This document shows positions 52,026 to 52,134 of a DNA stretch of 64,000 bases, in pieces; position 1 is the first letter of the stretch, and each line of letters begins with the position of its first letter. Both the position numbers and the translations under genes were made by a program. The DNA is from Escherichia phage vB_EcoM_LNA4. Below the pieces are notes generated by a model, which had not been told where the DNA came from, did not search any database, and was given only the letters and a program-made list of their open reading frames with translations. The stretch lies in the sequence record MZ311864.1. The stretch is one strand, 5' to 3'.

Positions 52026-52134
52026 GCAGGGTAGGCGGTTTGTCAACCGCGAGGTCCATCCAGACCTGAAAATAGCTCTCGGCTTGGAGTGGAGAGTGAA
52101 TACATAGGTGGTTAGATTCCACCACCCTGCTCCA
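52026..52134 (+). ncRNA. tRNA-like element with large insertion
   Basis: 7-bp acceptor pairing and D-arm, but about 38 nt inserted before T-arm and T-loop TTAGATT lacks C56. Confidence 0.35.

Follow-up and report, generated by a model that had tools for sequence, protein, structure and literature searches.

The question raised by positions 52026-52134 (plus strand) of a 64,000-nucleotide stretch of Escherichia phage vB_EcoM_LNA4 (sequence record MZ311864.1; the whole stretch is called the window below) is whether a molecule with the outline of a transfer RNA (tRNA) has to be a tRNA. A first-pass annotation had noticed a tRNA-like element with an insertion and an unusual T-loop at this place and had left three options, a tRNA pseudogene, a tRNA with an insertion needing processing, or a tRNA-mimic RNA. 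The last of these is the one which is backed by the evidence collected here. The element, 109 nt long and located in the tRNA cluster of a GAP31-like Seunavirus, is very probably a functional structured RNA, and to the more specific reading, that it is a functional, processed and non-decoding tRNA mimic, a probability of roughly 60% is assigned. It belongs to a previously undescribed and widely distributed family of five-armed tRNA-like RNAs, with members in rV5-like phages, phi92-like phages and at least one N4-like phage, and this finding is real and robust.

All the parts of a cloverleaf named in the first-pass annotation, a 7-bp acceptor stem, a D-arm, a T-stem and a terminal CCA, are present in the sequence, and the minimum free energy (MFE) fold of 52026-52134 on the plus strand agrees with them. 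This fold is a cloverleaf with a fifth arm and yields -47.3 kcal/mol (z score -4.42), a stability reached by none of 200 shuffled sequences. The parts are listed below; pairing and invariance refer to the widest model-guided alignment, which comprises 34 distinct sequences and 28 pairs.

52026-52032, plus strand: 5' strand of the acceptor stem, GCAGGGT, with its partner at 52124-52130; 100% paired, five of seven pairs with compensatory changes
52033-52034, plus strand: A8 and G9; A8 invariant
52035-52050, plus strand: D-arm with the stem GCGG/CCGC and the loop TTTGTCAA; 98.5% paired, three of four pairs with compensatory changes, G18 invariant
52051, plus strand: junction nucleotide G26; invariant in all aligned sequences
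52052-52067, plus strand: anticodon-like arm with the 5-bp stem AGGTC/GACCT and the 6-nt loop CATCCA; 96.5% paired, three of five pairs with compensatory changes
52068-52074, plus strand: 5' linker GAAAATA, single-stranded; AAAA invariant, first base G in 33 of 34 sequences and U in a podovirus copy
52075-52097, plus strand: fifth arm, the hairpin GCTCTC-GGCTTGGAGTG-GAGAGT; -11.6 kcal/mol when folded alone, z score -3.5
52098-52106, plus strand: 3' linker GAATACATA, single-stranded; AAUAC in 33 of 34 sequences, AUAC in 34 of 34, final A in all
52107-52123, plus strand: T-arm with the stem GGTGG/CCACC and the loop TTAGATT (U54, U55, A56, G57, A58); stem 100% paired
52124-52134, plus strand: 3' strand of the acceptor stem, ACCCTGC, discriminator U73 (52131) and encoded CCA (52132-52134), read from the sequence

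In the MFE fold the D-stem extends to GCGGUU/AACCGC with a 4-nt loop, which gives 6 bp; the two extra U:A pairs are invariant and hence have no support from covariation. The insertion between the anticodon-like hairpin and the T-stem does contain the CTCTC/GAGAG hairpin seen in the first reading, with 6 bp when a G.U pair is counted, and its length is 39 nt (31-40 nt in relatives) and not the approximately 38 nt then given; 7 + 9 nt of it are unpaired linkers. The 6-nt loop of the anticodon-like hairpin and the T-loop without C56 are likewise real. For the missing C56 the element has a compensation, as T-loop A56 (52114) has its partner in D-loop U19 (52043), forming a U:A elbow pair. In place of the usual U8/A14 an invariant A8/U14 is found, which presumably represents a reversed 8:14 pair.

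The evidence which carries this structure is covariation. In the 34 sequences 93.6% of the pair cells are standard pairs, 21 of the 28 pairs have changed on both sides, and 191 cells are compensatory, which was matched by 0 of 500 shuffles. Sliding the 3' partners by 1-3 columns as a control yielded pairing of 33-45%, while the four core helices listed above reach 96.5-100%. At the elbow pair 19:56, 22 sequences have G:C, 12 have U:A and none is unpaired; the UUCGAUU T-loop goes together with UUUGGCAA and the UUAGAUU T-loop with UUUGUCAA. In tRNA the L-shape is held at its elbow by the tertiary pair 19:56, so that the element almost certainly folds like a tRNA in three dimensions. Also kept are G18, U54, U55, A58, G10:C25, G26, and A21. 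G.U pairs occur at the second T-stem pair in 16 of the 34 sequences and at the last acceptor pair, 7:66, in six of them, and because these would be C.A mismatches on the opposite strand, the plus strand is the RNA strand. The linkers, which read GAAAA (UAAAA in the podovirus copy) and AAUAC(A/G)(U/A)A.. (AUAC only in one metagenomic variant), stay fixed even in lineages where many helix positions have changed.

A covariance model of the element, called R1 and built from 17 sequences, gave 66-127 bits for copies of the element, one per genome, and at most 30 bits for genuine tRNAs. The window copy scored 127.4 bits and has all the invariant positions. The marks of the family are the GAAAA and AAUAC linkers, a UUUG(K)YAA D-loop, A8, and the fifth arm. 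A BLAST search with the element retrieved 65 phage records (Seunavirus, Mydovirus and relatives) at 75-100% identity, 59 of them covered over at least 80%, and in nearly all of these the locus is unannotated. The rV5-like phages have a shorter homologue of 98-100 nt; a query of this type matched 164 records, with coverage of at least 80% of the query in 123, and the copies are either unannotated or labelled tRNA-Lys, tRNA-OTHER, tRNA-TERM or 'tRNA-???(atcc)'. Across these genomes the model gave the element 89-127 bits. Justusliebigvirus (phi92-like, Stephanstirmvirinae) contains the element at 67 bits, in 32 records. Salmonella phage vB_SenP_UTK0002, an N4-like podovirus (Schitoviridae, Ithacavirus), has a copy at 89 bits inside its tRNA cluster, the similarity of which to the myovirus copies (85-89% over ~113 nt) is limited to the element. 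The bearers thus include Seunavirus, Mydovirus, Vequintavirus, an Erwinia phage, Justusliebigvirus and Ithacavirus, in total ~200 phage genomes including BASEL E. coli phages, and most copies are unannotated or mislabelled.

Distant relatives were sought by pattern scans followed by the covariance model. With a pattern of the 5' half 40 new viral loci were obtained, 0 of which passed the model; a looser pattern gave 32 new loci, four of them real by the model, and it was these more distant members which proved to be phi92-like Justusliebigvirus copies. A pattern scan of 185,579 bacterial and archaeal species, with one representative genome each, found 0 copies. There were 18 metagenomic matches, on contigs of up to ~150 kb, consistent with the phage group of the element. 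No paper or family describing the element was found in the searchable literature and in Rfam, and it is absent from the rV5 genome paper, in which six tRNAs are listed. The first-pass annotation had considered that close relatives might have a normal tRNA, or nothing, at this locus; the opposite was found, as the relatives have the same unusual element.

The next question is how such a molecule could be made. The 2-kb region around the element has 99% identity to Enterobacter phage EC152 and Cronobacter phage vB_CsaM_GAP31 (Vequintavirinae, Seunavirus). Within the window 22 tRNAs are called by ARAGORN and 20 by Rfam at the gathering threshold, and the element lies between tRNA-Arg(GCG) at 51950-52023 and tRNA-Leu(UAA) at 52326-52403. 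Three neighbouring features are listed below.

51747-51775, plus strand: sigma-70-like promoter candidate TTGAAA-17-TAAAAT upstream of tRNA-Thr; consensus scan, 10 of 12 matches
51950-52023, plus strand: upstream tRNA-Arg(GCG) with CCA at its end; ARAGORN and sequence
52135-52325, plus strand: second structured RNA, directly 3' of the element and outside it; MFE -60.9 kcal/mol, z score -4.2

The predicted promoter could drive tRNA-Thr, tRNA-Arg, the element, the downstream structured RNA, and tRNA-Leu/Arg/Cys. Because of this upstream site, and because no terminator-like site was found on the plus strand up to 52560, it is plausible that the element is co-transcribed with the flanking tRNAs. 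Only 2 nt (AT) separate the CCA of tRNA-Arg from the start of the element, which is the layout of a tandem precursor, with U at position -1. In most lineages a tRNA for Arg, Ile, Thr, Ser or Leu ends with its CCA 2-5 nt before the element; an exception is Pr121LW, where ~98 nt separate the element from the nearest upstream tRNA. Which tRNA directly precedes it varies by lineage, being Arg(GCG) in the window, Ile(GAU) in PVP-SE1, and Thr, Ser or Leu in others. In Mydovirus the preceding tRNA looks defective; ARAGORN reports it as tRNA-???(ga), and annotators have entered it as tRNA-Ser or as a pseudogene.

As a processed tRNA mimic the element would be transcribed together with the tRNA cluster and cleaved by RNase P at G1, 2 nt past the upstream CCA. 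Exonucleases would then trim its 3' end to U73-CCA, with the CCA-adding enzyme completing the end where CCA is not encoded, the T-loop would be modified as in a tRNA, and a stable RNA of ~109 nt would accumulate, like the cluster RNAs of T4 and T5. This prediction of tRNA-type processing is based on the 2-nt spacing, the U at -1, the 12-bp acceptor/T stack, the elbow, and the UCCA tail. The stack of acceptor and T-stem and the elbow are what RNase P reads, and these determinants, together with the position 2-5 nt after a tRNA in nearly all lineages and with another structured non-tRNA RNA following in Seunavirus, would also suit a purely cis-acting processing or punctuation module, comparable to mascRNA or to tRNA punctuation in mitochondria, the excised RNA of which has no function. 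We regard this, the strongest of the rival readings, as improbable. RNase P needs the acceptor/T-arm and the elbow only, so that the invariant linkers, the invariant D-loop, the covarying anticodon-like stem, and the conserved length of the variable region are left without explanation; the ordinary flanking tRNAs already supply processing sites, and in rV5 proper the element is directly followed by tRNA-Thr and by no other RNA.

The second half of the preferred reading, that the processed tRNA mimic does not decode, is drawn from the anticodon-like loop. It is CAUCCA (6 nt) in the GAP31-type, PVP-SE1-type and Mydovirus copies, AUCAA (5 nt) in two metagenomic variants, and UUAUA or UUUUA (5 nt) in the rV5-like copies. 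In the Erwinia-phage, phi92-like and podovirus copies it reads CAUCAAA, which has 7 nt only as the closing pair is a C.A mismatch and has an A at the place of the universal U33. The discriminator is U in most lineages and C or A in rV5-like ones, and U73-CCA is encoded in most lineages and absent in rV5-like (ACCU, CACA) and phi92-like (UUCA, UCCC) copies. Since the loop has 5-7 nt and varies while the rest of the molecule is fixed, decoding is, by this comparison, not a conserved function; a role which depends on an anticodon would not tolerate such variation.

Programs for tRNA detection agree with this. The suggested check with ARAGORN left 52026-52134 uncalled, as did Rfam at the gathering threshold; ARAGORN called the element in none of seven lineages including the window, and one rV5-like copy appeared only as 'tRNA-???(atcc)' with a four-base 'anticodon'. 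Measured against canonical tRNA (RF00005), the element has the cloverleaf helices and the elbow pairs G18:U55 and 19:56 (U19:A56 in the window), and it departs in its anticodon loop, for which 7 nt with U33, a purine at 37 and an anticodon shared by orthologues would be required, in the size of its variable region, which in class I tRNAs is 4-5 nt and in class II a hairpin of ~10-24 nt with minimal flanks, and in escaping the tRNA finders. The top Rfam match was tRNA-Sec (RF01852), with 23.7 bits against a gathering threshold of 47 (E 0.063 in a search of 1.35 kb). Apart from the score, the 8/5 arrangement of tRNA-Sec is 7/5 here, and UCA is absent from the window loop, occurring only in the CAUCAAA lineages and there beside A33. 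Membership in an Rfam family was therefore rejected, as besides this sub-threshold match only noise was obtained (matches to a small nucleolar RNA, a plastid untranslated region, and a CRISPR repeat). Transfer-messenger RNA (tmRNA) was discarded as well: ARAGORN finds none, Rfam has no match, and the 109 nt have no reading frame module.

That the element is nevertheless a working decoder, either a UGA suppressor in the CAUCAAA lineages, a tRNA of the Gly(UCC) type, or one promoting frameshifts in the window, has to be considered, as some pipelines label homologues tRNA-TERM or tRNA-Lys and the window loop includes UCC. G1:C72, C2:G71 and U73 resemble the identity elements of E. coli tRNA-Gly, and the tRNAs of the window closest to the element are Cys and an atypical Gly(UCC), with tRNA-Sec as the weak Rfam match. 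Against the unrelated loop sequences, the A at the position of U33, a discriminator that changes with lineage, and the failure of ARAGORN and of the Rfam tRNA model these likenesses count little, and single-stranded linkers of 7 and 9 nt in the variable region are unlike any class II tRNA. A decoding role is thus quite unlikely.

The fifth arm is the part of the element which changes fastest. It is hypervariable and cassette-like, diverging by 30-57% where the flanks diverge by 0-4%. Phage 4MG and the window are 1-4% apart in the flanks and have one of 83 core nt different, and the arm is 30% different with pairing kept by compensatory changes; BIS47 and KPP-1 are identical in the upstream sequence and the core and differ by 47% in the arm. 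There are at least eight arm types, some being stable G+C-rich hairpins of 5-7 bp and others 3-4-bp stems closing a large loop. One arm loop, GAAYUAACAGUA, is shared by Mydovirus, Erwinia phage pEp_SNUABM_01, the podovirus, and two metagenomic contigs, and the stem that closes it has changed in a compensatory manner (GCC/GGC, GUC/GAC, AGCG/CGCU). Because of this recurrence with compensatory stem changes, the arm has the look of a module which evolves fast and can be exchanged on a scaffold that stays fixed, and not of junk.

An antisense or seed role of the arm, the linkers, or the anticodon-like hairpin was rejected, as complementarity across the 64-kb window was not above that of shuffled sequences with one exception. 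The exception, a 13-14-nt match to the messenger RNA of a ClpP-like protease (18382-18395, plus strand; gene 17961-18920, minus strand), is a repeat of the anticodon-like hairpin sequence inside the gene and was judged to be chance: a Mydovirus that has this hairpin does not keep the match, in an rV5-like phage it is uncompensated, and the matching stretch codes for a conserved GQVWMD motif.

The invariant flanks on either side of the hypervariable middle look like conserved splice or cleavage sites, and without the 39 nt a molecule of ~70-76 nt remains, both of which would fit a tRNA gene with an insertion in its variable region that is excised, for instance by cleavage and ligation, to a tRNA of normal size. 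This was the second option of the first-pass annotation, and it is very unlikely. The product would still have an anticodon-like loop of 6 nt here and of 5-7 nt, with varying sequence, in relatives, the GAAYUAACAGUA loop conserved across distant lineages suggests that the arm itself is used, and we know of no bacterial or phage system removing variable-loop inserts.

The first option, a tRNA pseudogene, is decided by conservation. Between genera the core, that is, everything except the arm, has 69-74% identity, and orthologous genuine tRNAs of the same genome pairs have 52-86%. In GAP31, 4MG and Mydovirus the 83-nt core differs by 0-2 nt, whereas the two upstream tRNAs differ by ~30% and the downstream sequence by ~50%. 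The PVP-SE1-type Seunavirus copies differ from the window copy at ~15 core positions, mostly in a compensatory way. On this comparative evidence, the element is phage-specific, single-copy, under purifying selection comparable to that on real tRNAs, and present in unrelated phage backgrounds. The relationships among the cores, as aligned, depart from genome taxonomy, and from this together with the podovirus copy we infer that the element has been exchanged horizontally between phages.

A decaying pseudogene or a chance fold carried along in a recombining cluster is effectively refuted by covariation. There are other defective-looking tRNAs in these clusters ('tRNA-OTHER' pseudogenes and the tRNA-???(ga) mentioned above), and homing endonucleases shuffle the region. 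Such a relic would however not have changed in a compensatory way in each of its helices and at the tertiary pair, nor would it have single-stranded motifs that are invariant or a core conserved like real tRNAs and far better than the flanking ones; the rV5-like phages retain the element with only ~six tRNAs, the podovirus and the myovirus copies are alike in the element and not outside it, and the slid controls argue against an alignment artefact. A feature of the DNA (a recombination or homing site, or a promoter) or a short protein is equally remote, although open reading frames overlap the element (51884-52069 and 51916-52107, plus strand; 51873-52154, minus strand), small 'hypothetical proteins' are annotated at its locus in some records and HNH genes lie near in relatives, as the lengths of 98-110 nt vary by non-multiples of 3 with insertions and deletions in the arm, the substitutions preserve RNA pairing by compensation, the G.U pairs fit one strand and not the other, and no properly spaced pair of promoter-like hexamers is found inside.

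What a processed, non-decoding tRNA mimic might do can be approached from what is fixed in it. The elbow, the core, the linkers and the length of the anticodon-like arm are fixed, and the loop and the fifth arm are free, which fits recognition of the tRNA body by a protein. Outside translation, the tRNA-shaped surface would engage a protein which recognises tRNA; this protein would bind the invariant core and linkers, and the fast-changing fifth arm would be a determinant of specificity or evasion. Many defence nucleases recognise the shape of tRNA and cut the anticodon arm, and phage tRNAs serve as countermeasures (PMC10264068, PMC11464382, PMC11555353, PMC13056530, PMC12445682). Among specific mechanisms, a role as decoy or inhibitor against a tRNA-targeting nuclease or toxin of the host defence therefore ranks first by analogy, as a tentative proposal which we hold to be possible and not probable. 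Still more speculative is the full version of this idea, in which the element would be a mobile, phage-specific RNA anti-defence decoy that blocks a tRNA-targeting nuclease, a toxin or another tRNA-recognising sensor, with the arm as the product of an arms race.

Phage tRNAs are known to rescue phages from tRNA-cleaving defence, as T5 tRNA-Lys does against PARIS and tRNA-Tyr against retron effectors, and altered anticodon loops of mycobacteriophage tRNAs are a route of evasion (PMC11464382, PMC11555353, PMC10264068). Such rescue tRNAs are, like the element, encoded in phage tRNA clusters and shaped by the conflict with tRNA-targeting nucleases of the host. They replace cleaved host tRNAs as decoders, whereas the non-decoding element could only act as a decoy or an inhibitor, a mode for which no description was found.

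Several points weigh against the reading as a functional, processed, non-decoding mimic and against the decoy in particular. No data on transcript, processing, modification or binding of the element, and no transcript data for these phages, were found in the searchable literature, and the decoy role is an analogy. It is not easy for an RNA from a single-copy gene to titrate a nuclease that acts catalytically. In some lineages a 7-nt loop can be drawn (CAUCAAA, with 'UCA'), so that there may have been an ancestral decoding role. As the rV5-like and phi92-like copies have no encoded CCA, a common 3' end needs CCA addition by the host. The extreme core identity of GAP31-type and Mydovirus copies, finally, could partly be due to recent recombination and not to selection.

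The closest analogues are found in T4 and T5. Small stable non-tRNA RNAs have been known in phage tRNA clusters for about fifty years (T4 species 1 and 2, T5 RNA I and III), and like the element they are encoded by small non-tRNA genes among tRNA genes. T4 species 1 and 2 correspond to rnaC and rnaD, and further T5-type names are RNA3, RNA2H and RNAX. In T4, tRNA-Arg is followed by rnaD (119 nt) and rnaC (139 nt), and the element too comes directly after tRNA-Arg. In the T5-like phage DT57C, RNA I (107 nt) and RNA III (106 nt) lie between tRNA-Ser and tRNA-His and are annotated as 'stable RNA with unknown functions'. The DT57C region 22578-27797 contains five stable RNAs among its tRNAs, RNAX with 636, RNA3 with 73, RNA2H with 172, RNA I with 107 and RNA III with 106 nt. 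Compared to shuffled sequences, DT57C RNA III (z score -3.8) and RNA3 (-3.0) are significantly stable, and RNA I (-1.4) and T4 rnaD (-0.8) are not. T4 rnaC contains a hairpin, GGGUUCGAAUCCC, that resembles a T-arm, and T5-type RNA I ends with GCCA behind its terminal stem. Homology of these RNAs to the element was rejected, as the covariance model gave no match with E up to 10 in the T4 locus and up to 1 in the T5-type locus; they differ in their folds and have no complete cloverleaf, elbow pair, invariant linkers or hypervariable arm.

In its body the element is closest to class II tRNAs and tRNA-Sec (RF00005, RF01852). With these it has in common the 7/5 stack of acceptor and T-stem, a T-loop of the form U54-U55-N56-R57-A58, G18, the 19:56 pair, G10:C25, G26, an NCCA end, and an extra arm in the variable region, and its D-arm can be drawn with 6 bp and a 4-nt loop as in tRNA-Sec. 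It differs from them by the 5-7-nt loop without U33, by A8/U14, and by a variable region of 31-40 nt; the variable arm of class II tRNAs is a hairpin with 0-2 flanking nt, in contrast to unpaired linkers of 7 and 9 nt, and tRNA-Sec has 8/5 and not 7/5 for acceptor and T-stem.

The vtRNAs of murid herpesvirus 68 (MHV68) and the MALAT1 mascRNA are tRNA-shaped, processed by tRNA enzymes and non-decoding, those of MHV68 being encoded by the virus. They serve as promoter or processing modules for downstream microRNAs or for the 3' ends of long non-coding RNAs. The element is of a similar kind, with unrelated sequence and in another domain of life, and it is conserved beyond the needs of processing. 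tmRNA and the bacterial Y-like RNA YrlA likewise mimic the acceptor/T-arm with elbow contacts; tmRNA however has a tag reading frame and pseudoknots and YrlA a Ro-binding stem of its 5' and 3' ends, and neither Rfam family matches the element.

Compared to the T4 and T5 RNAs the element is a cleaner case, with a full tRNA body, a clear absence of decoding, invariant single-stranded motifs, and an arm that looks like the result of an arms race, and the BASEL E. coli phages which contain it are genetically tractable. The labels tRNA-Lys, tRNA-TERM and tRNA-OTHER distort counts of phage tRNAs, analyses of codon usage, and surveys of suppressor tRNAs, and the covariance model corrects the annotation of the element at once. 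Should the element prove to be a decoy for tRNA-targeting immunity, an RNA mimic would join the known phage counter-defences as a new RNA-based class, and a function for the stable RNAs of the T4 and T5 tRNA clusters would be suggested. Should it be only a processing module, it would still be a new conserved RNA family with unusually clear covariation of a tertiary pair.

The structured RNA at 52135-52325, which probably shares a transcript with the element, begins with GUGCAU-UAGCUCAG, resembling the 5' end of a tRNA. Its outer stem comprises 13 bp (AAACAUAUUUUAA/UUAAAAUAUGUUU), and its inner stem reads UGCAU/AUGCA. It is unannotated, conserved to 90-100% in Seunavirus, and without a match in Rfam. 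Six of the 61 pairs of its consensus fold show compensatory changes, and phage TH18 has a divergent homologue after the element (650-825 of the locus sequence).

Two further genes of the cluster are unusual tRNAs. A tRNA-Gly(UCC)-like gene (53190-53263, plus strand), annotated as tRNA-Gly in GAP31 and missed by ARAGORN and by Rfam at the gathering threshold, has the unusual A8-G9 and U73 in common with the element and is among the tRNAs closest to its core. At 54066-54149 (plus strand) a tRNA was recognized by Rfam (50.5 bits) and missed by ARAGORN; it has an enlarged D-arm and the anticodon loop CUUUUAA (UUU, Lys) and is possibly an atypical tRNA-Lys(UUU), an isoacceptor which is the target of several anticodon nucleases.

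Two neighbouring genes were tried as partners of the element and rejected. A 494-aa protein at the end of the cluster had no informative match. A 215-aa phrog_1491 protein (50834-51481, plus strand) has no Pfam domain and nothing stronger than a sub-threshold hint of an S1/Csl4-like RNA-binding protein, and it occurs also in phages without the element. Its homologues are found in 788 phage records and adjoin the tRNA cluster in the T5-like and Vibrio phages examined, and those in Erwinia jumbo phage and Pseudomonas phage records have no annotated tRNA nearby; in all four of these groups the tRNA regions are without the element. The common label 'tail fiber protein' is probably wrong, and a role related to tRNA is conceivable for it.

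The cluster is bordered at its end by an endonuclease VII / HNH-type gene (55164-55628, plus strand), and relatives such as K18PH07C1, PVP-SE1 and KP12 have HNH insertions inside the cluster (~500 extra bases), which is consistent with the tRNA cluster being a recombination hot spot. Just 5' of the cluster lies a gene for nicotinamide phosphoribosyltransferase, an enzyme of nicotinamide adenine dinucleotide (NAD) salvage (46077-47762, plus strand), and the phi92-like phage PD06 likewise has such a gene just upstream of its tRNA cluster (1-1558 of the locus sequence).

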